Below, piece by piece: positions 3,167 through 54,257 of a stretch of DNA of 64,000 nucleotides. This DNA is from a virus. The first letter of the stretch is position 1. Each line of letters begins with the position of its first letter. The notes beneath the pieces were generated by a model. That model had not been told where the DNA came from. It ran no database searches and saw nothing but the letters and a program-made list of their open reading frames with translations. Both the position numbers and the translations under genes were made by a program. The DNA is taken from positions 1-64,000 of the IMG/VR virus record IMGVR_UViG_3300032080_000001. The stretch is one strand, 5' to 3'.

Positions 3167-5212
3167 ATGACCCTCGACAGGCAGCTGGTAGGGCTACTGG
3201 ATGAGTTGCGCCGGAAGCTCGACCCCGTGGCACAGAAGCACCTCGAAGACCTCGTCAAGTTGACCTCCGGCCAGCCTGACGAGCTTTTGGCGTTGCTCCG
3301 AGACCTGGCGTCGTTCGACTTCAAGTGGACGCCGGTGGGCATGGAGGAATTCGTCCTCTCGCCGGAGTACATGGGGCTCGACGGCACGCGTGGTCGCATC
3401 TTCCCCCGCCTGCTGGACGACCTCATCGAGTTGTTCGAGGACCCTCTCGGCTACGAGCAGGCTGTGATGATGGGCGGCATCGGGTGGGGCAAGTCCACGC
3501 TCTCCGAAGTTGCCCTCTCCCGGATGGTTTACGAGACCTCCTGCCTTGTGAACCCACAGAAGGCGTACGGCCTCATGGACGGGTCCACCATCGCGTTCAT
3601 CAACGCGTCGGTGAACTTGAAGCAGGCCGAGAAGGTGGTGTTCGAGGGTCTCAAGAACAAGCTCGGCGCCAGTCCTTACTTCAAGGAAAAATTTCCCTTC
3701 GAGAAGGACCTCAAGAAGGAGATGCGCTTCCCCGGTAACCTGCTCATCATGCCTGTGGCGGGCTCGGAGCAGGGCACCGTAGGGTACAACGTGCTCGGCG
3801 GTGTACTGGACGAGGTGAACTTCTGGCAGATTACCGAGAAGTCGAAGCAGAACCGGGGACAGGAGTTCGACCAGGCGCGGCACGTCTACGACATGCTCAT
3901 CCGCCGTATGCAGTCCCGCTTCAACGTGGCCGGTAAGCTGCCCGGCGTGCTGCTCCAGGTCTCGTCGTCTAAATACCCGGACGATTTTACCGAGGAGCGT
4001 GCGCGTGAGGTGGAGCAGGCGATGGCCGACCACCTTGCGGACCCGAAGACGAACGCGCACCCGAAGACGCTGGTGCGCCGGTACTCGACGTGGTCCACGA
4101 AGGACCGCGCGGTGTTCCTGCCCGAGGAGTTCTACCTGTACCGGGGCACGACTTCCGACAAGCCCGCCATCTCCACGAATCGCGATGACTTCGCGGACAA
4201 GGACCCGGAGATGGTGGTGCCGGTGCCGATGGACTTCTACGCGTCATTCAAGCAGGACATCCTCGGGTCACTGCGCGACCTGGGGGGGTTCCCGACGCTC
4301 TCCATTGCCCCGTTCTTCACACAGAAGGACCGGCTGATGGAGGCCATTGAGCGCGGGCGGCGAGCGGGGTTGGTGCACCCGTATACGCTGGATGAGACGA
4401 CGCTCGAAGACGGCGCGTACTTTCTTCGAGAGCGCGTTAAGTTCGACCCGACGAAGTGGTACTACGCGCACGTGGACTTGGCGCTGACGAAGGACCGGGC
4501 GGGCGTGGCCGTCGCCCACGTCGCCGGGTGGAAGGAAGTGCAGCGCGTACGAAACAACGTGCTGGTGACGGAGATGGAACCCATCGTTGTGGTGGACTTC
4601 ATGCTCCGCATCACGCCGCCGGAGCAGGGCGAAATCCAAGTGGCCGAGGTGCGTGCGCTGCTCCTCGAACTGCGCTCGTACGGCTGCAACCTGCGTAAGG
4701 TCACGTACGACCAGTACCAGTCAGCCGAGTCGCGCCAGGCGTTCGAGCGCATGGGCATCGAATCCGACAAGTTCTCGGTCGATACCACGATGGACGCGTA
4801 CCACGCGCTGGCCGAGGCCATCCTGGAGGGTCGCCTCGTCATGTATGATTACGCGCCGTTCGTGGAGGAGTTCGTTCGGCTGGAGAGGAAGACGACCGGG
4901 CGGGGCGAGAAGGTGGACCACCCGCCGAAGGGCTCGAAGGACGTGTCCGATGCCGCTGCGGGTGCCGTCTATCACGCCACGATGGCGCGCCACACCGCGC
5001 AGTTGGACCCGAGCCTGGGCGAGACGACAGACTCCCCGGTGGTGGCTGGCGTGACGCTGTGGGCAACGAAGGACGGACGCACCCTCGAACCCACCGTGGA
5101 CACGGCGGGTCGGCTGCTCCCCGGTAAGAAGCTCCGCACGTTGGACGACGTGATGTGGGGCGAGGTGGCGGAGGATGAGGGGGACGAGGACTTCGTCGTT
5201 GGCTTTGCTTGA
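3167..5212 (+). CDS. terL: terminase large subunit
   Basis: Walker A GIGWGKST, Walker B GVLDE, nuclease motifs HVDLA, YDQYQS and KDVSDA; directly before the portal. Confidence 0.9.
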   Translation: MTLDRQLVGLLDELRRKLDPVAQKHLEDLVKLTSGQPDELLALLRDLASFDFKWTPVGMEEFVLSPEYMGLDGTRGRIFPRLLDDLIELFEDPLGYEQAVMMGGIGWGKSTLSEVALSRMVYETSCLVNPQKAYGLMDGSTIAFINASVNLKQAEKVVFEGLKNKLGASPYFKEKFPFEKDLKKEMRFPGNLLIMPVAGSEQGTVGYNVLGGVLDEVNFWQITEKSKQNRGQEFDQARHVYDMLIRRMQSRFNVAGKLPGVLLQVSSSKYPDDFTEERAREVEQAMADHLADPKTNAHPKTLVRRYSTWSTKDRAVFLPEEFYLYRGTTSDKPAISTNRDDFADKDPEMVVPVPMDFYASFKQDILGSLRDLGGFPTLSIAPFFTQKDRLMEAIERGRRAGLVHPYTLDETTLEDGAYFLRERVKFDPTKWYYAHVDLALTKDRAGVAVAHVAGWKEVQRVRNNVLVTEMEPIVVVDFMLRITPPEQGEIQVAEVRALLLELRSYGCNLRKVTYDQYQSAESRQAFERMGIESDKFSVDTTMDAYHALAEAILEGRLVMYDYAPFVEEFVRLERKTTGRGEKVDHPPKGSKDVSDAAAGAVYHATMARHTAQLDPSLGETTDSPVVAGVTLWATKDGRTLEPTVDTAGRLLPGKKLRTLDDVMWGEVAEDEGDEDFVVGFA

Positions 5213-40007: not shown

Positions 40008-41249
40008 GTGGCGCAAGCTGCACTTTCGGTCGGGGTGTCCAACCGAGACACCCCGGCTGACGCCACGTACCAGGCGTTCTTTGGTACGCGGTCCGGGCCG
40101 TTCGTCCCGATGTTGTCAGGGCTGCTCCGCGCACTTGGAGCAGCTTCTCTTTCGGACGGCGCTACCGGTACACTACTGTTATTGTACAGTGAGTACGTCC
40201 CGATGTCGCTCCGGAACGGGCACCTCGGGGACGATGGCTGGGTGATGGTGTGGCCGTCAAAGGAGCGGCTGGCCGAGGAGACGGGGAGGCGGCGCTCGAC
40301 GGTGAAGGAGCACCTTGCGGCGCTCGAAGCCCTCGGGGCTATCCGCCGCTCCAGAGAGCGGGTGAACGGACGCACGGGGGTGCTGTGGGTGCGCCCCACC
40401 CCCGCCCTCCTCGCGCACCTGGAGGCGAGGCCGGAGGTGCAGGCCACCCTGCGTCAGCGATTCAAGAGGCGCTACGACCCGCAGGTGACGCCCATCGAGT
40501 CGAGGTTCTTCCTGGCCGAAAATTCGGCCAGCACCTGGCCGGAAAACCGGCCACAACGGAAGAGTACTACGACCGAAGAAGAAGTAAACAGCAACACGCC
40601 GCAGGGGCGCCGCGCAGAGGACCGGACGCCGCTGGCGGAAATGGCCTGGCCGGAGGGCTGGGACGAGGGGCGGTTCGCCCGCTGGTTCGAGTACACGCAT
40701 GACGAAACGGTAGCCGACGTGAAGAGCATCTACGCGAGAATGGCCGAACTGCGGCAGACGCAGGACGCGGCCGAGGACGAGAGCGCCGAGGCCCGCGAAA
40801 AGCGGTTGGCGAAGCCGAAGTCGCAGCGGATGAACGGGGGCAGGAAGCAGGCGCCCAAGGTCGCGCGCACCGACACAGCGTCCGCTCTGATGCGGGACTT
40901 TAAGGCGCTGGTCACGACGAACTTCCCCAACGCGTACAACCCGCCGAACGACGTGAAGGCGCTTTCGCAGATGCGCATGCTCCTCGACCGGTACGGCGAG
41001 GCCGAGGTCCGGCGGCTCATGGAGTTCGTCGCTGACCCGACAACGTGGGGGCGTATCAAGACCAAGTGGCCGAAAATCGAGCTGTTTCAGCCCACTCCTG
41101 GTTGGCTGCTGGCCTGGAGCGAGTCGCTACTCCAGTGGATGAAGAGCGGCGCCCCCGATGCGGGGCAGGCTACCGGTCCGAAGCGCAGCGGCGGAGCCGA
41201 GGTTTACGACCGCGCTACGACCGACGCGAAGGGTCGCTCGACGTTCTGA
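40008..41249 (+). CDS. HTH replication initiator protein
   Basis: WPSKERLAEETGRRRSTVKEHLAALEALGAI winged HTH; internal iterons; upstream of DnaC/DnaB. Confidence 0.72.
   Translation: MAQAALSVGVSNRDTPADATYQAFFGTRSGPFVPMLSGLLRALGAASLSDGATGTLLLLYSEYVPMSLRNGHLGDDGWVMVWPSKERLAEETGRRRSTVKEHLAALEALGAIRRSRERVNGRTGVLWVRPTPALLAHLEARPEVQATLRQRFKRRYDPQVTPIESRFFLAENSASTWPENRPQRKSTTTEEEVNSNTPQGRRAEDRTPLAEMAWPEGWDEGRFARWFEYTHDETVADVKSIYARMAELRQTQDAAEDESAEAREKRLAKPKSQRMNGGRKQAPKVARTDTASALMRDFKALVTTNFPNAYNPPNDVKALSQMRMLLDRYGEAEVRRLMEFVADPTTWGRIKTKWPKIELFQPTPGWLLAWSESLLQWMKSGAPDAGQATGPKRSGGAEVYDRATTDAKGRSTF
40513..40553. repeat. two palindromic iterons within the initiator gene
   Basis: TGGCCGAAAATTCGGCCA (40513) and TGGCCGGAAAACCGGCCA (40536). 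Confidence 0.75.
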
Positions 41250-41293: not shown

Positions 41294-41322
41294 TTGACAA
41301 AAGTAGCTGACCCTATTAAACT
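41294..41322 (+). promoter_or_regulatory. sigma70-type promoter, probably leaderless
   Basis: TTGACA-17-TAAACT; ATG at +7 after the -10 with no Shine-Dalgarno. Confidence 0.7.
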
Positions 41323-41328
41323 GTTCGT

Positions 41329-42888
41329 ATGACGCAGACGTTTCGAGAGGGGGACCAAGTGGCGGTCCAAGGTGCGCTGCCCCGCGAAGAGGCTAAAGTC
41401 GTTCGTGTGTTTGGTGACTTCGCAGATTTGCCGCCTACCCGTGCAATTGTGCAGTACGCGTCGGGGCGGCGCGGCGTGCGGTCCCTTAGTGAACTCAAGC
41501 CGCTACACCCAGTGACACCTGCCGAGGAGAACACACCCCGCGTGACTACCGTAGATAGCGAGAACGGACCTTTTAAGCTCGCCTTCCCGCAGATGAAGCC
41601 GGGCATGCGCGTGCAAGAGGTGAACCTGCACGGCCAGACGATGCACGGCCGCATTCTTGGGAAGATAAATGCGTCCAAGGAGTTGCTGGTCCTTTTCGAC
41701 GGCAACACGCAGCCTTTAACGGTGCCTGCGGGGGCGGTCTCCGTACTCCCGGCGGACCCGTTGGACCAGATTCACCCGATGCTGGCGAAGAACCTGGACG
41801 ACTACAAGAGCCTCTCTCTCGACCAGTTGCTCCAGGATGACTCGTGGGGCGCCGAGGAGAAGTACGACGGCGAACGGACCATCCTCGCGGTGAACCTGAC
41901 CGGCCAGTCCTTCCGCGCAACGACGCGCGTAGTCGGTAAGAATACTGGCACGCTCGGAGAGAACACGGCTCGTTTGCCGCATCTCAAAGGGCTATTCCCG
42001 GTGCCCGAGGAGGGCACTACGGTCTTCGATGGCGAGCTGATGCACGAGAACGGCTTTCAAGCTCTCCGGAGCATCATGGGGAGCGACCCTGCGCTCGCTG
42101 TCGAGAAGCAGCGCGACCTGGGCTTCGTCGGCGTGCGTCTGTTCGACATCCTCTGGTTTGGCGGCAACGACCTGCGGGGGATGGAGTTCAAACAGCGGCG
42201 GGTGGTGCTGGAGACATGGTTCCGGGAGTCGTGGACGTGGCTCCAGGCGAACTACCCGATGACGCACGCCCTGTTCGCGGAGCACGTGTCCCTTTCGCCA
42301 CTCAAGTGGACGGCGGACGAGAAGCAGCATCTCCTTGAAACGGTGCTCGACGCGGGAGGTGAGGGCATAATGCTCAAGCACGCCCGTGGGCGGTACACCG
42401 ATACGACGGTCTCCGGCCAGCGGTCGGCGGACCTGCTCAAGGTGAAGCCGTTCGCGGAGACCGATGTCATCGTGGTGGGTTTCGAGGAAGGGAAGGGGCA
42501 GTTCAACACCGACAAGTACGGCGCCATTCACGTCGCGCAGTGGGTACCGCGCGACCGGGTGACGGCGGAGATGGCGAAGAACGAGTACGTGGCAGCGAAC
42601 GGTTTCGGCCTGCACAACAACGTCAGCGCACTCTACGACGACGCTTCCCGGTCCGGCCTGTTCCGGACGCACATGCTGGTTTACATGGGCACCACCGGCG
42701 GCTTCACGCAGGAGCAGGAGCAGGCGTTCCGCGCGGCGCCGGGGGATTTCATCGGCAAGGCGATGGAGGTCTCCTACCAGGAGAACGGCCGCTGGCCGAA
42801 GACGGGGCGACTCCGCCACTCCCACTTCGTGCGGATGCGCGATGACAAGAGCACCGATGACTGCACGTATGAGCCGAACACTGCGTGA
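41329..42888 (+). CDS. ATP-dependent DNA ligase with N-terminal extension
   Basis: EEKYDGER, FDGEL, FDIL, EGIMLK and LKVK motifs; C-terminal OB-fold LRH..F.RMRDDK. Confidence 0.92.
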   Translation: MTQTFREGDQVAVQGALPREEAKVVRVFGDFADLPPTRAIVQYASGRRGVRSLSELKPLHPVTPAEENTPRVTTVDSENGPFKLAFPQMKPGMRVQEVNLHGQTMHGRILGKINASKELLVLFDGNTQPLTVPAGAVSVLPADPLDQIHPMLAKNLDDYKSLSLDQLLQDDSWGAEEKYDGERTILAVNLTGQSFRATTRVVGKNTGTLGENTARLPHLKGLFPVPEEGTTVFDGELMHENGFQALRSIMGSDPALAVEKQRDLGFVGVRLFDILWFGGNDLRGMEFKQRRVVLETWFRESWTWLQANYPMTHALFAEHVSLSPLKWTADEKQHLLETVLDAGGEGIMLKHARGRYTDTTVSGQRSADLLKVKPFAETDVIVVGFEEGKGQFNTDKYGAIHVAQWVPRDRVTAEMAKNEYVAANGFGLHNNVSALYDDASRSGLFRTHMLVYMGTTGGFTQEQEQAFRAAPGDFIGKAMEVSYQENGRWPKTGRLRHSHFVRMRDDKSTDDCTYEPNTA

Positions 42889-43528
42889 CCTGACCCCGGC
42901 CGACCTCCAGCGGGCGAACATCCCCGAGAGGTACTGGAGCGCGACGTTCAAGGACGTACCGAAGGGGGCCGAGCACTGGGGCCCGGTGAAGACCTACCTG
43001 ACGGACCTGGAGTCCTTCCTCGACAACGGGGAGGGACTCTACCTCTGGTCCGTCGAGAACGGAACCGGCAAGACGGCGCTCGCGACGCTCATCCTGCGCC
43101 GCGCGCTGCGGCTGGGGTACACCGGCTACTACACGCGGTCCGAGGCGGCGAAGCGGGCGATGCAGGTGCCTGAGCGCGTGCTATTCGATGAGGCGACCAC
43201 GGTGGAGCAGCGTCTCCGCGCGGTGGACGTGCTGGTGTTGGACGACTTCGGCAAGGAGTACCGCTCGCAGAACGGCAGTATGTTCACCGAGAGCGCCATC
43301 GAGGACCTGGTGCGCGAACGCGTCCAGCGGCGCAAGGTGACGCTCTACACGGCGAACATTCCGCCGCGCAAGCTCGCGGATAACGGGCTGTTCACGGTGG
43401 ACCTCGCGGACGTACTTCGCGAGAGCGTGGGACACATCGAAGTGGTCGGCCCCGACCGGGGCGGGAAGTTGTGGCGCCGGGACGCCGCCACGGACCTCAT
43501 GGACCGCCTGTACGACGGGGATTCGTAA
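42869..43528 (+). CDS. DnaC/IstB-like helicase loader ATPase
   Basis: IPERY..ATF, GTGKT, LVLDDFGKE and TAN motifs. Confidence 0.85.
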   Translation: MSRTLRDLTPADLQRANIPERYWSATFKDVPKGAEHWGPVKTYLTDLESFLDNGEGLYLWSVENGTGKTALATLILRRALRLGYTGYYTRSEAAKRAMQVPERVLFDEATTVEQRLRAVDVLVLDDFGKEYRSQNGSMFTESAIEDLVRERVQRRKVTLYTANIPPRKLADNGLFTVDLADVLRESVGHIEVVGPDRGGKLWRRDAATDLMDRLYDGDS

Positions 43529-43532
43529 GAAC

Positions 43533-44813
43533 ATGGATTACGGCAAGTTGGCCATTGCGAGGGCGCTGACCGACCAGAGTGTCGGAGCGTTCCTCGACCG
43601 GGACGTGCGCCCGGATATGATGCCGACCCCGGAGGACGGGGCGGTGCTCAAGTTCATTCTCGACTTCTTCCGGCAGCACCAGGCGGTGCCCGCGCCCCGG
43701 ACGGTCGAGACGCAGTTCCCCGGCTACGCTCTCGGGTACGCGCCGGACCCCGCGACGGCGTACGTGGACGCCATCGTGAAGCAGCACGTCCGCGTGCGGG
43801 CGCAGGAGGAGATTCTTCACGACGTGAAGCTCTTCCAGCACGGAGACCCACTCCAGGTCGCAGCGGGACTCCAGACGAAGCTCGCGCGGCTCTCCTCTCT
43901 CACGGAGGGGAACCGGGTTAAGCTGTACAACGAGCACGCGAGCGGGCGCTTCGCGCGGTACTTGAACCGCAAGAATCGCGTGGGCCTGCTCGGTATTCCG
44001 ACCCCGTGGTCGTCGCTGGACGACCTGACGCAGGGGTGGCTTCCCGAGATGTACGTCGGCGTGGCGGCGCGGCCCAAGACAGGTAAGACGTTCTGGATGC
44101 TCCGTGTGGCGTTGGCCGCGTGGCAGGCGGGGTACAAGGTCCTGTTCGTCAACAAGGAGTTGCCGGACGAGATGATGGAGAACCGCTCCGACGCCATCGG
44201 GGCGAAGCTCCCGTATGAGAAGCTCCGCACCGGCGCCCTCACGATGTTCGAGGAGCAGCGGCTGGAGCAGTACCTCAAGGACCTTGAGGCGAACCCGCCG
44301 TCCGACTGGTGGTGGCTGCACGACGTGTCGAACGTCTCGGCCATCCGGGCGAAGGTGGAGGAGTACAAGCCGGACATCGTGTTCATCGACGGCGCGTACC
44401 TGCTCGAAGACGAGATGGGCGGCCGGACGGAACGTGAGCAGCAGAAGAACCTGTCGCGAAACATCAAGCGCCTCGCACAGAAGACGAAGCTGCCGGTCAT
44501 CATTTCCATCCAGTTGAACCGGGACGGAGACCAGAAGAAGAGCAAGACGCAGTTGACCATGTCGAACGTGTACGGCTCTGACGCCTTCGCGCAGGACGTG
44601 GACCTGCTCATCGGCCTGGAGCAGTCGGACGACCAGCGGATGAACCGACAGCTCCAGATTACTCCGCTTGCCGTCCGCGAGGCCGAGGGCAAGCCCATCA
44701 TCGTGGGCTGGGACTTCGACACGATGGAGTCGCCGGACTACGGCTATCCGTCGAGCGTGGCCGGGATGGCGAACGACAAGGATGACGACGACGTGTTGAC
44801 CTTCAAGGACTGA
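43533..44813 (+). CDS. dnaB: replicative DNA helicase (DnaB family)
   Basis: ARPKTGKT, IDG.YL, QLNR and SDAFAQDVD motifs. Confidence 0.9.
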   Translation: MDYGKLAIARALTDQSVGAFLDRDVRPDMMPTPEDGAVLKFILDFFRQHQAVPAPRTVETQFPGYALGYAPDPATAYVDAIVKQHVRVRAQEEILHDVKLFQHGDPLQVAAGLQTKLARLSSLTEGNRVKLYNEHASGRFARYLNRKNRVGLLGIPTPWSSLDDLTQGWLPEMYVGVAARPKTGKTFWMLRVALAAWQAGYKVLFVNKELPDEMMENRSDAIGAKLPYEKLRTGALTMFEEQRLEQYLKDLEANPPSDWWWLHDVSNVSAIRAKVEEYKPDIVFIDGAYLLEDEMGGRTEREQQKNLSRNIKRLAQKTKLPVIISIQLNRDGDQKKSKTQLTMSNVYGSDAFAQDVDLLIGLEQSDDQRMNRQLQITPLAVREAEGKPIIVGWDFDTMESPDYGYPSSVAGMANDKDDDDVLTFKD

Positions 44814-44831
44814 GGGTTAGATTCGTTTTAT

Positions 44832-44924
44832 CAAGGCGCCGTGCAGAAAGGCTCCTGCCGTTGAGAGGCGGCGGGGCGGTCCTCCCCAGGTCCGCGAAGT
44901 GGCCTTACCCTGTACGGCGCTTTG
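44832..44924 (+). ncRNA. candidate structured non-coding RNA (three-way junction)
   Basis: 15-bp terminal stem, second stem, GAGA-tetraloop hairpin and CCCC-loop hairpin; TTGACC-16-TAGATT immediately upstream. Confidence 0.5.
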
Positions 44925-44933
44925 CTGTACCCC

Positions 44934-44962
44934 TTGACAAATGTACATGACTCTATTAACTT
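44934..44962 (+). promoter_or_regulatory. sigma70-type promoter with TGACTCTAT spacer motif
   Basis: TTGACA-17-TAACTT. Confidence 0.7.
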
Positions 44963-45006
44963 ACTGGCACGTTGCTGGTACGGTGTGCTTACGAACGGAG
45001 ACAAGC

Positions 45007-45237
45007 ATGTTGGTAGACGCTAAGGGATATCTCACCCGCGAAGGGTGGGAGGCTTTCGGGTTCGAGGCGCACGGGAAAGTGCCGGGCTTCTACTACCACC
45101 GCGAACTCGGCCTGGAGTTCGACATGAACGCCGCGCGGAGCCCCGCAGGCTTTGTGAAGTGGGTGTTCGTAATGGGCAAGGCCGAAGGGAGCCGGGAGAA
45201 GCTCCGTCAGATACAGCGCATGCTGGGGGTTCTATGA
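45007..45237 (+). CDS. hypothetical protein
   Basis: ATG after GGAGA; ATGA overlap with the primase gene. Confidence 0.55.
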   Translation: MLVDAKGYLTREGWEAFGFEAHGKVPGFYYHRELGLEFDMNAARSPAGFVKWVFVMGKAEGSREKLRQIQRMLGVL

Positions 45238-46331
45238 ACGCGGACAGCATCGTCTATGTACTGGAGGAGCTGGGCTCCCCGCGCGTGAAGAACCTCGGCA
45301 AGAACGTGCAGGCGTCCTGTCCGCTGGCTCCGTGGAACCACGGGTCGGGGAGTGACGCCTCCATGAAGCTCGGCGTGCTCGTCACGCAGGGGATGAGCCC
45401 GGCGAACTGCTTCTACCCCGGCTGCTTCCACGGCACGCTGCTGGAGTTGGTGGACGCCGTCGCGACGAAGAAAATCACAGACGGAGACTGGGAACTCGGC
45501 GGCGACGAGGTCTCTAACCTCAAGGCATTCGTAATGCTCGCGGAGGAGACCGACGAGGTGGACCTCTCCGGCGGTCGCGGCGCGGCCGTCGTGGAGCCCA
45601 TCCCACAGGACGTACTCGCCCTGGTCGGCGGCGGCTCCCCCTACTGGACGGAGCGGGGCGTCGGCCTGGTGACGGCGGACTTGTGGAAGCTCGGGGAGGG
45701 GAAGGGCCGTGCGTTCATCCCGCTCATCGACCGTCAGGGACAGGTCGTCGCCGTGAAGGGCCGCCTGCTGCCGGGCGAGGAGTACGACGAAATGCCCGGC
45801 ACGGGGAAGGCGCGCTCGGCCAAGTACCGGCTCTTCCCGGCGAGCTTCCCCTCCGGCGACTACCTTGTCGGGGAGCACCTGCTCACGAAGCCGGTGGACT
45901 TCCTGGTGGTTGTGGAGTCGGAGGCGGACGCCATCCTGCTGAACGAGTGGTTCCTCGACCCTGCGTTCCGTGACGCGTTCCCGTTCGGGCAGGCCACGGA
46001 CGGTGCGCTCGCGGTGTCCACGGCGGGCGGCGAGTTCACTGCGCGGCAGGTGCAGAAGATGGTCGAGGCCCTGACGGCGCAGGGTGAGGTCGCGGTCGGC
46101 ATGGACGCCGACCACGCTGGGCGACTCGCCACGCGGAAACTGGTGGACGCGCTGCGGAAGCGTGTACCCCGTGTGTCGGAAATCGAGTGGGAGCGGAAGG
46201 ACCCGTCCGATGACGACGACGGGAACGGCGGGAAGCTCTCCCGCGATGTGGTCAAGGCTGACGCGCGGCGGTCCATCGAGACGCGCATGGACTGGTTCCA
46301 GAAACGCATCACCGCCGCGCTCCGTACTTGA
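45234..46331 (+). CDS. DNA primase (zinc finger + TOPRIM)
   Basis: CPL..WNH...CF.PGC zinc finger; VVESEADA and MDADHAG TOPRIM motifs. Confidence 0.82.
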   Translation: MNADSIVYVLEELGSPRVKNLGKNVQASCPLAPWNHGSGSDASMKLGVLVTQGMSPANCFYPGCFHGTLLELVDAVATKKITDGDWELGGDEVSNLKAFVMLAEETDEVDLSGGRGAAVVEPIPQDVLALVGGGSPYWTERGVGLVTADLWKLGEGKGRAFIPLIDRQGQVVAVKGRLLPGEEYDEMPGTGKARSAKYRLFPASFPSGDYLVGEHLLTKPVDFLVVVESEADAILLNEWFLDPAFRDAFPFGQATDGALAVSTAGGEFTARQVQKMVEALTAQGEVAVGMDADHAGRLATRKLVDALRKRVPRVSEIEWERKDPSDDDDGNGGKLSRDVVKADARRSIETRMDWFQKRITAALRT

Positions 46332-46356
46332 CAAACCGGTAGCATACCGGTACATT
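46328..46356 (+). promoter_or_regulatory. promoter whose spacer is filled by two ACCGGTA boxes
   Basis: TTGACA-AACCGGTAGCATACCGG-TACATT. Confidence 0.7.
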
Positions 46357-47150: not shown

Positions 47151-47183
47151 GCCCCGAAGGCTCGGACAGGTGACGTAAGAACG

Positions 47184-47215
47184 GACGGGCGCGTGCGGCA
47201 CGCGCCCGCCTTCTT
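47184..47215 (+). terminator. hairpin after the ssDNA-binding protein gene
   Basis: GGGCGCGTGC-G-GCACGCGCCC followed by CTTCTT. Confidence 0.55.
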
Positions 47216-47282
47216 AGGCCCCTTGACAAGTGCTGGTGTAACGTACCCACTACGGGTACTACACCCTTACGAACGGTAAACG

Positions 47283-49883
47283 ATGCGCGTAGTGAGGACG
47301 CTTCCGGGGTGGAAGGACCTGCTGTACAAGCTCTGGAACAGCCGGGACAAGGATGGACTTCACGTCATCGGGTTCGACACCGAGACGCTGGACAGGGGAT
47401 TCCCTGACGTGCAAATCGTCGGCTTCTCGGCCGCGTGGTACGAGTGGAACCAGTTCGGCATCCTGGACAAGAATCGCGCGTACGTGCCGGTCGGCCACGC
47501 CACCGGCGAGTTGCAGATTACACTCGTGGAGGTGGTGCCGGGGCTTAAGGCGTTGCTGGAGGATGGTTCCGTCGAGGTCACGGGGCAGAACCTCAAGTAC
47601 GACGCGAAGGTGGTGCGCCTGCTCGGCATCGAACTTACCGAGAACGTGTTCGATACCCTTATCGCGTCGTGGCTGCTGAACACTAACGGTGTCGGCTCGA
47701 AGCTCCAGGTGTTGCTGGGGGAGGGGGAGCACGGGTTGAAGGCCCTGTCGAAGCACCTCCTCAAGAAGGAGATGACGGAGCTTACTGAGCTTGCGCCGAG
47801 GGAGAAGTATACGCGGGGCGGCGTCGAGTTCGAGACGCTGCGCGTGGACCTGGTCCCCATCGAAGACCAGTACGACCCGGTGAGCGGTGCGCTGGTGAAG
47901 AAGGGCATCGCGAACTACGCGGGTGACGACGCCGAGCGGGTGCTCGACCTGCGCGAACTCTTCAAGCCACAGTTGGACGAGGACCCGAGGACGCGGCGCG
48001 TGTACTACGCCATCCAGCGGGAGTTCATCTTCGTGCTGGTGGACATGGAGTCCTTCGGCGTCGAGCTGGACGAAGACCTGCTGGCCGACATGCGCGTGCG
48101 CATCGAGGCGGAGCTGGTCCTGGTGAAGGAGAGCATGTACCGCCAGCGCCGGGGCGAGGACTTCCCCGCTTTCGCGGACGCGGCCCTCGTCAAGAAGTTC
48201 GTGGAGCAGTGGGACGAGTACGAGGCGCGGTTCACGCTCGGAAAGGACCACCCCAACTACCCGAAGAAGGTGGTGGAGAAGGGTCCGCGCGGCAACAAGA
48301 CCACGTCGCTGGAGCCCGCGTCGAAGGCAACCGTTCGTAAGAACCTTATCGACGCGTTCGGTCTCCAGGGGCACCCGGTCGTGGACAAGGTCCGGGATGA
48401 CAAGTTGCGCCCCGAGGTGAAGATGTTCCCGCACCTCGCGCACAAAATCTTCAACCCCAGCTCGGTCAACGAGCTGAACAAGGTCCTGTTCCAGGAGCAG
48501 GGGTTGGCGCCCATCGGAGAGCGCGGCGCGAATGGCCTGTTCTCCACGAAGGCCGAGTACGTCGAGGTCTGGAAGAACTACGGCGACCCGCTGGCGAAGG
48601 AGCTGGACCGTCTCCGGGAAATCGACAAGCTGCGCGGCACGTACCTCGTCGGCATGGTGGCGCTGCTCTCGGCCGACCGGCGCCTGCGCGGGCGCATGAA
48701 CCAGGGCGGGACGCGGACCGGGCGGCTCTCGATGTCCGACCCGAACCTCCAGAACCAGCCGAACAATAAGGAGTTCCCCATCCGCCAGTCGTTCGTGGCG
48801 ATGGGGCTCACGGCTTCCGCCGTGACGATTCACGACTGGTACCTGGATGACAAGGGGAAGAAGACGAAGCCGAAGCACCTAACGGTGCAGGCGCTTGCCC
48901 CGGACGACCCGAAGCATCAGGCGTGGACCGCGCGCACTGGTGTCGTGCTCGACGGCGGCTACGAAATCCGGGAGAAGCAGGTCGTCCGCTGGTGGGGCAC
49001 GCGTCCCCCGTACGTGCTGTTCGTGGGCGACTACTCGCAGCTGGAAATCTGCCTGCTCGCGCACGAGTCCTCTGACGAGAAGCTGGTGACGGCCGTGAAG
49101 GAGGGGCAGGACATCCACGCGCTGACGGCGCAGGCGGTGTTCGACGCCATCCCGAAGACGATGTCTCTGGAGGACGTGAAGAAGAACTTCCCTGACCTGC
49201 GCAAGAAGGCGAAGCCCATCAACTTCGGCATCCTGTACGGGATGGGGCCGCAGAAGCTTGCGGGGACGCTCGGCATCTCGGTGGAGGAGGCGAAGGACAT
49301 CATCGAGAACCGCTACATGAGCTTCTACGTCGGCGTGGCGCGGTGGATTCAGAAGATGCACACCTTCGCCGTTGCGAACGGGTTCGTGACGACGGCAGTG
49401 GGGAGGAAGCGGCACCTGCCTGCCGCGCAGTTGCCGAGAGACGGTGAGACGTTGGGGTACAAGAACTCCATGCTCATCTCGAAGGCGAAGCGGCAGGCGC
49501 AGAATACTCCCATTCAGGGACTCGCGGCGGACCTGGTCGCGCTCGCGATGCGTGACCTCCGGCGGCGGTTCAAGAGCCTGGTGATTCAGGACCTCGCCTC
49601 GGAGATGCTGGTGGGAGCGAACGGCGAGCAGCCTACGCCGATGCCGGTGACGCTTCCTGGCCTGACGCACTGGGGCGCGGGGCCGGACGAGCTGTGGGGC
49701 AACTGGGTGCGCTCCCTCCTCCAGGTGCACGACGAGCTGGTGCAGGAGGCCCACCCCGCCGTCGCGAACTGGGTTGCGACGGAGTCGGTGGAGCTGATGG
49801 AGAACGCCGGGGGTATGTCGCTACGCGTCCCGATTCACGTGGACGCCGCCCTCGGTACCGATTGGTTCCTGACGAAGGAGTAA
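47283..49883 (+). CDS. polA: DNA polymerase family A with 3'-5' exonuclease
   Basis: FDTET, NLKYD, TGRLS..PNLQN, DYSQLE, KPINFGILYG, NTPIQG and VHDE motifs. Confidence 0.95.
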   Translation: MRVVRTLPGWKDLLYKLWNSRDKDGLHVIGFDTETLDRGFPDVQIVGFSAAWYEWNQFGILDKNRAYVPVGHATGELQITLVEVVPGLKALLEDGSVEVTGQNLKYDAKVVRLLGIELTENVFDTLIASWLLNTNGVGSKLQVLLGEGEHGLKALSKHLLKKEMTELTELAPREKYTRGGVEFETLRVDLVPIEDQYDPVSGALVKKGIANYAGDDAERVLDLRELFKPQLDEDPRTRRVYYAIQREFIFVLVDMESFGVELDEDLLADMRVRIEAELVLVKESMYRQRRGEDFPAFADAALVKKFVEQWDEYEARFTLGKDHPNYPKKVVEKGPRGNKTTSLEPASKATVRKNLIDAFGLQGHPVVDKVRDDKLRPEVKMFPHLAHKIFNPSSVNELNKVLFQEQGLAPIGERGANGLFSTKAEYVEVWKNYGDPLAKELDRLREIDKLRGTYLVGMVALLSADRRLRGRMNQGGTRTGRLSMSDPNLQNQPNNKEFPIRQSFVAMGLTASAVTIHDWYLDDKGKKTKPKHLTVQALAPDDPKHQAWTARTGVVLDGGYEIREKQVVRWWGTRPPYVLFVGDYSQLEICLLAHESSDEKLVTAVKEGQDIHALTAQAVFDAIPKTMSLEDVKKNFPDLRKKAKPINFGILYGMGPQKLAGTLGISVEEAKDIIENRYMSFYVGVARWIQKMHTFAVANGFVTTAVGRKRHLPAAQLPRDGETLGYKNSMLISKAKRQAQNTPIQGLAADLVALAMRDLRRRFKSLVIQDLASEMLVGANGEQPTPMPVTLPGLTHWGAGPDELWGNWVRSLLQVHDELVQEAHPAVANWVATESVELMENAGGMSLRVPIHVDAALGTDWFLTKE

Positions 49884-53513: not shown

Positions 53514-54127
53514 CCCCCCTGACTATGACCCCACGAAAGCGCAAGAAGTCCGAGCGGGAGCTTGCGCGTAACATCGAGTACCAGAAGGAGTACTACGCCG
53601 CCAACCGCGACGAACTCCTCAAGAAGAAGAAGGAGCGGTACCAGGGTGACCCCGAGTACCGGCGCGGCATCAAGGTGCGGGCAAAGCGCAAGCGGTGGCT
53701 GGAGGAGAGGCCGGAACAGAAGGAGTTCCCGCCCTTCGGTATCCTGGCCGAGCTGGAGCCGAAGGGCTCCATCGAGGTGAAGGTGAAGGACCGCCACGAC
53801 GCCCGCCACGGTCAGACCGTCTCGGTGCCCGTCTTCTCGACCGGCGCGGTGGCCGAGCTGCTCGGCCGGGCGCCGGAGGTGCTTCGCCTCTGGTGGAAGC
53901 GCAAGCAGATTCCCGAGCCGTACCACCGGGGTTCGATGGTCCCGGAGAACATGGTGAAGGGGCGCAACCCGCGCCTGTTCACTCTGGACGAGATGCGGGC
54001 CATCGACAACGTGAAGGAGATGCTCAACCTCCCCAGCCGGGGGAGCAGCCACGCGCTGTTCTCGGACAGGCTGACGGAGGAGTTCGAGAAGATGGACCAG
54101 GGTCTCTACCAGGTCCCGAACGCGTAA
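53510..54127 (+). CDS. MerR-type HTH DNA-binding protein
   Basis: FSTGAVAELLGRAPEVLRLW...IP.P...R.FTLDE; basic N-terminus. Confidence 0.7.
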   Translation: MTPLTMTPRKRKKSERELARNIEYQKEYYAANRDELLKKKKERYQGDPEYRRGIKVRAKRKRWLEERPEQKEFPPFGILAELEPKGSIEVKVKDRHDARHGQTVSVPVFSTGAVAELLGRAPEVLRLWWKRKQIPEPYHRGSMVPENMVKGRNPRLFTLDEMRAIDNVKEMLNLPSRGSSHALFSDRLTEEFEKMDQGLYQVPNA

Positions 54128-54188
54128 GCGTTCGTAAGAAGACGCACTCCGAGGGGTTCTTACGAGCCCCTCGGTCGCTTTCTGCCCC

Positions 54189-54226
54189 TTGACAAGTGCC
54201 GGTGCTACGCCTATACTCTACCGGTA
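54189..54226 (+). promoter_or_regulatory. promoter of the recA operon with TACCGGTA at the start site
   Basis: TTGACA-17-TATACT, then TACCGGTA at 54219. Confidence 0.7.
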
Positions 54227-54257
54227 CACCCGACGAACCCGAACGACGAGAACCTAG

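Follow-up and report, generated by a model that had tools for sequence, protein, structure and literature searches.

Evidence for a conserved three-way-junction RNA element in the helicase-primase spacer of an uncultured soil phage

To our knowledge, few structured RNAs are known in phages besides tRNAs, and hairpins between genes are mostly written off as terminators. A 193-nt spacer in the IMG/VR virus record IMGVR_UViG_3300032080_000001 raises the question of what a larger, branched structure is doing between two sets of replication genes. We analyzed positions 1 to 64,000 of this record (hereafter the window), which is the first 64 kb of the 123,873-bp genome, G000, of an uncultured soil phage. 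The spacer separates dnaB (43533-44813, + strand), encoding a replicative helicase, from a unit formed by a small open reading frame (ORF) and a primase gene (45007-46331), all within the phage replication module. It holds a 93-nt element at 44832-44924 on the + strand that is predicted to fold into a three-way junction. We conclude that this is an undescribed RNA element and that it is, very probably, a real and conserved + strand RNA structure. Most likely, it forms an elaborate end to the helicase transcript and is not a gene with a promoter of its own. Full-text literature searches turned up no account of it.

The initial annotation of this locus had proposed the junction and its position between the two units, and both held up. 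Every pairing that it listed was recovered, and the minimum free energy structure and the centroid computed by RNAfold are this same junction, with -60.1 kcal/mol and a z-score of -5.64; none of 200 dinucleotide shuffles was as stable. We label the four helices P1 to P4, and the parts are given below together with some of their counterparts in a relative, locus L002, which is described further on.

44832-44846 (+): 5' arm of P1, CAAG followed by the GC-rich GCGCCGUGCAG
44847 (+): unpaired A between P1 and P2 (AA in L002)
44848-44853 (+): 5' arm of P2, AAGGCU, within the sequence-conserved block GAARGGSUCCUG
44854-44875 (+): P3 hairpin, 9 bp (3 G-U) with the GNRA tetraloop GAGA at 44863-44866
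44876-44895 (+): P4 hairpin, 4 bp, a U/U mismatch and 3 bp, with the loop CCCC at 44884-44887
44896-44900 (+): junction strand GAAGU (GAAGA in L002)
44901-44906 (+): 3' arm of P2, GGCCUU
44907-44909 (+): unpaired ACC between P2 and P1 (CAUC in L002)
44910-44924 (+): 3' arm of P1, with the GC-rich part CUGUACGGCGC ending at 44920 and UUUG at 44921-44924 pairing with CAAG
44921-44933 (+): 13-nt tail UUUGCUGUACCCC, from the end of the GC-rich stem to the next -35 hexamer

P1 thus has 15 bp, including two G-U pairs and a GC-rich portion of 11 bp, and P2 has 6 bp with one U-G pair; the three junction strands are 0, 0 and 5 nt long, the last being GAAGU. We also conducted a fold scan of the whole genome in 100-nt segments with a step of 25 (about 4,950 segments). 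The segment starting at 44826 ranked first on the + strand, with a G+C-corrected z-score of -4.61, and the next reached -4.03. Given this rank and the result of the shuffles, the structure is more than would be expected by chance.

We also observed that P3 and P4 have complementary tips, G-rich in P3 and C-rich in P4, with GAGG at 44865-44868 facing CCUC at 44881-44884 in the window and GGGAA at 4329-4333 facing UUCCC at 4350-4354 in L002. Judged from the sequence, the tips may form a loop-loop contact within or between molecules; alternatively, the match may be a chance product of GC-rich RNA.

Next, we compared the two strands. The reverse strand of the element folded less stably, at -44.7 kcal/mol with a z-score of -2.28, and 3 of 200 shuffles were as stable. 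With DNA parameters, the + strand gave -28.8 kcal/mol (z-score -3.83) and the - strand -25.8 kcal/mol (z-score -2.91), so that the asymmetry between the strands is 15 kcal/mol with RNA parameters and 3 kcal/mol with DNA parameters. The window element contains six G-U pairs, and GNRA loops are present in both phages. The G-U pairs, the GNRA loops and the strand asymmetry argue that the element acts as a + strand RNA, in line with what had been supposed from the G-U pairs at the outset. The position between the genes for helicase and primase, 3.6 kb beyond the initiator gene, and the good fold of the + strand as DNA could also point to a single-stranded DNA signal in the replication module, such as a priming or helicase-loading site or part of an origin. 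However, the asymmetry is large with RNA parameters only, the conserved GNRA loops and the many G-U pairs favour RNA, and there is no turn of the GC skew near 44.9 kb. Neither iterons nor an AT-rich stretch were seen on reading the sequence, where no search for origin-marking iterons was made. We regard such a DNA signal as very unlikely.

The absence of a match to a known family, previously noted by eye, was borne out by database models. Rfam 15, which took in the hammerhead, twister, 6C, c-di-GMP-I, purine, pRNA and Y RNA-like families, gave no match at the gathering score in the whole 64-kb window and none at E-values up to 10 in 44600-45100, and ARAGORN predicted no tRNA or transfer-messenger RNA gene in the window. 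The hammerhead core is also a three-way junction, with the strands CUGANGA and GAAA. We rejected this family: the junction strands here are 0/0/5 nt, CUGANGA does not occur in 44826-44930 or in L002 4299-4396, and Rfam gave no match. A retron RNA was likewise rejected, as there is no adjacent reverse transcriptase gene, the neighbours being DnaB, a 76-aa ORF and the primase.

The relative L002 lies on an IMG/VR contig of 31,557 bases (G001) whose DnaB and primase are 57% and 45% identical to those of the window phage and whose gene order is identical. Its spacer between dnaB and the small ORF, 4273-4463, has the same three-way-junction architecture. When the window sequence alone was used to build a covariance model (R1), the model matched L002 4299-4396 over its full length with 39.3 bits and an E-value of 2.7e-6 in a search of 84,170 bases on both strands with filters off, and the best unrelated match scored 19.7 bits. 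The helices compare as follows.

P1: 15 bp in the window; 15 bp in L002 (4299-4313 with 4382-4396)
P2: 6 bp in the window; 5 bp in L002
P3: 9 bp and GAGA in the window; 6 bp, a tandem G.A, one G-C and GGAA in L002, of equal length and with a GNRA loop in both
P4 loop: CCCC in the window; CCCCAA in L002

Covariation, which the initial annotation had left to be sought among homologues, was present in this one relative. In the two-row alignment, 95.9% of 73 cells are standard pairs, a fraction that is inflated because the alignment was fitted to the structure. Both sides have changed in 19 of the 37 pairs, 11 of them among the 15 pairs of P1. When the partners were slid by 1-3 columns as a control, 40-47% of the cells were paired with 3-5 double changes, and none of 500 shuffles reached the observed pairing values. 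RNAalifold recovered 31 pairs, 19 of them compensatory. The helices covary, and the junction is near-identical in sequence, with the 5' block GAARGGSUCCUG and the 3' block GAAGWGSCCYYAYCCYG (junction consensus GAARGGSUCCUG...GAAGWGSCC).

We then considered whether protein coding could account for this pattern. The small ORFs downstream (45007-45237 in the window and 4464-4712 in L002) show no BLASTP similarity despite their kept position and size, nor do the - strand ORFs that lie over the element in the two phages. A protein-coding reading was rejected, as no conserved ORF runs across the element and the compensatory changes fit RNA pairing. Since the helices covary and the junction is conserved while the neighbouring and overlapping ORFs are unrelated, the constraint acts on + strand RNA structure. 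The terminators before polA, which are syntenic in the two phages, are plain hairpins and have not kept the same length or loop. Against this background, the junction is exceptional in how closely it is conserved, which argues for a function beyond termination.

The two sequences may be the first members of a new class of structured phage RNAs linked to the replication module, with a three-way-junction core of conserved sequence, a GNRA loop and a C-rich loop, and with a protein-binding, regulatory or catalytic role; we think this possible, if somewhat unlikely. The terminator-like P1 would then merely be a closing helix, and helicase-operon output might be coupled to primase expression or to replication. 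Another reading is a new functional RNA class (a protein scaffold, or a self-cleaving or ligand-binding RNA) that lies near a promoter only incidentally. It fits the covarying helices, the near-identical junction blocks, the GNRA loop at a fixed distance and the tips of P3 and P4 that are complementary in both phages. Against it stand the lack of any Rfam match even at E-values up to 10, the small number of conserved unpaired bases (about 10), a 15-bp P1 that is too stable for a switch, and the fact that two sequences cannot establish a core. We consider this reading quite unlikely.

The phage uses a very uniform family of promoters of the form TTGACA-N17-TAnnnT, with 43 members on the + strand of the genome and a single one on the - strand, between 39265 and 120164 (39265-61509 within the window); TTGACA itself has 52 + strand and 6 - strand occurrences. 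Most members carry ccccTTGACAaa...tGACCCtATTAnnTT, and the usual motif in the 17-nt spacer is TGACCCTATTA. None was found in the first 39 kb, which therefore probably uses another promoter type. One member lies directly downstream of the element.

44934-44962 (+): family promoter TTGACA-N17-TAACTT with the spacer TGACtCTATTA, upstream of the small ORF and primase, with all features of the family

This promoter starts 9 nt after P1, and at the equivalent place L002 has TTGACG-N17-CATACT. Around 13 of 45 folded family sites, as counted by visual reading of the folds rather than with a calibrated predictor, are preceded by a simple GC-rich hairpin that is flanked by AAGAA and UUCUU and stands 13-14 nt before TTGACA. 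P1 shares this layout: CAAG and GCGCCGUGCAG on one side, CUGUACGGCGC and UUUG on the other, and then CUGUACCCC, with the GC-rich part ending 13 nt before TTGACA. The spacing after plain terminators is the same, at 13 nt for the unit at 66666 and 14 nt for that at 72902. P1 has the GC-rich stem of an intrinsic terminator, follows the last gene of a unit and stands 9 nt before a family promoter; that unit comprises ligase, dnaC and dnaB and begins downstream of the family promoter at 41294. On its own, P1 contributes -27.4 kcal/mol, which is inside the range of the plain terminators of this phage. The terminator scan tool, which takes loops of 3-8 nt, gave P1 no score.

Two side observations concern these promoters. 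Plain terminators consisting of AAGAA, a GC hairpin (often with a UUCG loop) and UUCUU are found in the window at 47151-47222 and 54100-54188, in the wider genome at 66620-66665 and 72866-72901, and elsewhere, and with the family promoters they form terminator-promoter cassettes between units. The palindrome TACCGGTA occurs in 38 copies, compared with about 1.3 expected from base composition (for example at 46338-46352 and 54200-54230 in the window); it often adjoins the -10/+1 region of family promoters and is also present in the contig of the relative. It is a candidate operator for a phage regulator.

It had originally been proposed that the element has its own promoter and is a standalone non-coding RNA. 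The site in question is as follows.

44796-44823 (+): promoter-like TTGACC-16-TAGATT, with a 9/12 match; the same bases can form a weak hairpin, H0, with a U-rich tail AUUCGUUUUAU

The site is indeed present, but a match of this quality is expected about once per strand by chance. It was rejected as a family promoter because it has TTGACC, a 16-nt spacer and no conserved spacer motif. The reading that would rely on it is a small RNA running from about 44830 to P1 from a sigma-70-type promoter inside the end of dnaB, that is, a 'type I' small RNA of the 3' untranslated region (3'-UTR). TTGACC-16-TAGATT would place the start 1-2 nt before P1, and the junction core is conserved in sequence, as a functional RNA would be. 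The near-family motif TTGAC[CGT]-N16-18-TAnnnT is rare, with four copies on the + strand and none on the - strand, the other three lying in spacers by crude gene calls. However, a hand estimate from base composition gives about 0.9 near-family matches per strand by chance, so that one copy inside a coding sequence is unremarkable, and the site is outside the 43-copy family. The site is also not conserved in position: L002 lacks a TTGAC-type site there, and its best equivalent, TTGATT-17-TACGCT at 4269-4297, stops 1 nt short of P1 (which begins at 4299), so that transcription would start inside P1. Moreover, the bases at 44796 can form H0 instead (-13.1 kcal/mol), which a motif scan also listed as terminator-like, and L002 too has a hairpin directly 3' of the dnaB stop codon. 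Given these points and the place of the element in a terminator slot, an own-promoter small RNA seems unlikely, and the claim of a standalone RNA is not supported.

We therefore tentatively favour, at somewhat less than an even chance, a composite in which P1 serves the ligase-dnaC-dnaB unit as its terminator or 3'-end stem and encloses a conserved two-hairpin module. In this scheme, P3, P4 and P2 would be the first to form behind the passing RNA polymerase. The 15-bp P1, with its 11 GC-rich base pairs and CAAG/UUUG flanks followed by UUUGCUGU, would then close and act as an intrinsic terminator and as a barrier to 3'-exonucleases. Termination there would insulate the downstream promoter, as the plain AAGAA-hairpin-UUCUU terminators would do elsewhere in the genome. 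In place of a terminator loop there would be a selected module of two hairpins, in which the GNRA loop keeps a fixed distance of 9 bp, the other loop is C-rich and the junction is conserved in sequence; through this module, the stable 3' end, or a 3'-derived RNA of about 93-130 nt, might gain a second function. The most plausible such function would be protein binding, or pairing of the C-rich loop with G-rich ribosome-binding sites.

Several points weigh against this composite. The U-tract after the stem is poor (UUUGCUGU, 5 of 8 being U, with the first four bases paired with CAAG), and that of L002 is poorer still (UAUCCGUUGGGU). A branched insert of 63 nt in a terminator stem is unusual. 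H0 and its U-rich tail (44796-44831) lie just upstream and could be the real dnaB terminator, in which case the junction would be left without an assigned role. A search for targets of the C-rich loop returned generic matches resembling Shine-Dalgarno sequences, none of them common to both phages. The visual count of terminators given above and the comparison of two sequences, aligned to fit the structure, also belong on this side.

A simpler version of termination was considered as well, namely that P1 is an oversized terminator whose inner hairpins have no function. Its position and its A/U-tract design do resemble those of the plain terminators. However, the inner module has preserved the lengths of its helices, the types of its loops and the sequence of its junction across a divergence that took DnaB to 57%, primase to 45% and the small ORF to no detectable similarity, and the syntenic plain terminators are not conserved in such detail. 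Thus, this version appears highly improbable.

The helix could also be cut rather than serve as a stop signal. P1 and P2 together make a near-continuous helix of 21 bp, above the threshold of at least about 20 bp for RNase III, with a 1x3 internal loop that is kept as 2x4 in L002, and the element sits between two units, where an RNase III-type processing site would separate the helicase transcript from primase read-through and leave a protective 3' stem. Phages relying on RNase III carry several sites, whereas the element is present in a single copy in 123,873 bases; in addition, the downstream unit owns a promoter, and there would be no explanation for the conservation of the GNRA loop, the C-rich loop and the junction sequence. 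We regard this as rather improbable. In the early mRNA of T7, RNase III cuts separate transcripts and leave a protective 3' stem, and the signals are simple irregular hairpins in many copies. The element resembles these signals in being intergenic, in having about two helix turns with an internal loop and in lying between phage units, but differs in being branched and single-copy.

To return to the composite of terminator stem and inner module, its closest analogues can be named. The element shares with the plain terminators of this phage the slot at a unit end upstream of a family promoter, the GC-rich stem with an A-rich 5' side and a U-rich 3' side, and a comparable stem energy; it differs from them in having a 63-nt branched module for a loop, a weaker U-tract and an architecture that is conserved in a relative. 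Small RNAs derived from 3'-UTRs, such as DapZ and CpxQ, share the terminator of their mRNA. As in these RNAs, and in target-pairing terminator loops, a functional module would lie at or inside the terminator that ends a coding unit; in both of those systems, however, the functional region is upstream of a plain hairpin or in its simple loop, whereas here a three-way junction lies inside the stem, and in a phage. By analogy, the element may work most like an intrinsic terminator with a functional insert, or like a 3'-UTR-derived RNA. Base-pairing of terminator loops with targets is described in a preprint (bioRxiv 10.1101/2024.01.16.575843).

The phi29 pRNA offers a different comparison. It is phage-encoded, its 5' and 3' ends pair into a helix, a three-way junction lies at its centre, and it has two hairpin loops, all of which the element shares. 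In contrast, the element has no Rfam match, is about half the size and lies at a different location, in a 124-kb genome with a replication module of DnaB, primase and PolA, unlike phi29. On these grounds, it is not counted as a phi29 pRNA.

Next, we asked how widely the element occurs. A covariance model built from the window and L002 sequences (R2) found one copy in the phage genome (123,873 bases) and one in the contig of L002. Neither the spacer nor the 1.1 kb around it had a blastn match in 50,697 GenBank phages. In tblastn searches of GenBank phages, DnaB matched 610 records, all below 60% identity (the best 40 listed had 23-29%), and the primase matched two records, at its N-terminus only. 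IMG/VR scans with DnaB, with the primase and with alignments recovered the L002 contig as the sole close relative. A first scan of JGI metagenomes yielded no relatives; in a second, among the 80 kept of 122 relatives, only one (L005) reached 45% identity, and its synteny is different and the RNA element was not found in it. No relatives were found in the species-genome contigs scanned. With R2, 96 of 113 other dnaB loci (636,476 bases in all) gave no match, and the remaining 17 gave a single match of 17.1 bits over 37 nt. The Stenotrophomonas phage DLP_5 has the same order of dnaB, small gene and primase, with a spacer of 60 nt and no R2 match above 10.2 bits. A protein search gave 19 DnaB relatives at 38-59% identity, mostly in Logan/ENA assemblies.

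A degenerate DNA pattern of the element selected seven stretches in IMG/VR, of which the L002 contig alone scored. In 185,579 species genomes, 80 of the 90 stretches selected were searched with R2, and the best reached 27.2 bits. The top matches, in Mesorhizobium, were rejected as plain long hairpins that are not tRNAs and are unrelated to the phage RNA. A long GC-rich hairpin repeat, CUAGCCCCUCCCCACAAGGGGG..., is shared by two Mesorhizobium genomes (L184 1969-2042 and L165 5886-5959), scores 26-27 bits with R2 and has no relation to the phage RNA. As far as its pipeline is described, an IMG/VR-wide survey (PMC10690425) required blastn-level homology and at least three IMG/VR regions, so that it probably missed a motif with two members.

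The genome has a G+C content of 65%, with nearly all genes on the + strand. The single sequencing run that matched the phage is a soil metagenome DNA run, which may be its source. The terminal repeat of the record (1-127 and 123747-123873) is an exact 127-nt overlap of prefix and suffix. Since 127 nt is the size of a common assembler k-mer, the overlap may mean a circular assembly, not physical terminal repeats. The replication module is arranged as follows, with dnaB as the last gene of its unit.

40008-41249: initiator-like protein with matches to RP-C / HTH_36 and lambda O-like PHROGs, at the head of the module
41329-42888: ATP-dependent DNA ligase (Pfam/PHROG)
42842-43528: DnaC-like loader (Pfam/PHROG)
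43533-44813 (+): DnaB-like replicative helicase (Pfam DnaB_C, 2e-27; PHROG 19, 1.7e-57)
45007-45237 (+): small ORF of 76 aa with no Pfam or PHROG family
45234-46331 (+): Toprim primase (Pfam Toprim_2, 4.8e-07; PHROG 47, 7.2e-15)
Between the primase and the family A DNA polymerase: SSB-like protein
47283-49883: family A DNA polymerase

Here, selection has kept a branched structure in the position of a terminator, even though the proteins on either side are down to 45-57% identity. Should the inner module have a partner, the case would show a terminator stem doubling as the scaffold for a second function within a replication operon. It would also define a new RNA family, and about 17 more relatives, so far known only from their DnaB proteins, could be searched for further members. 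If the element is a terminator only, an unusual branched design for a terminator would still have been documented.

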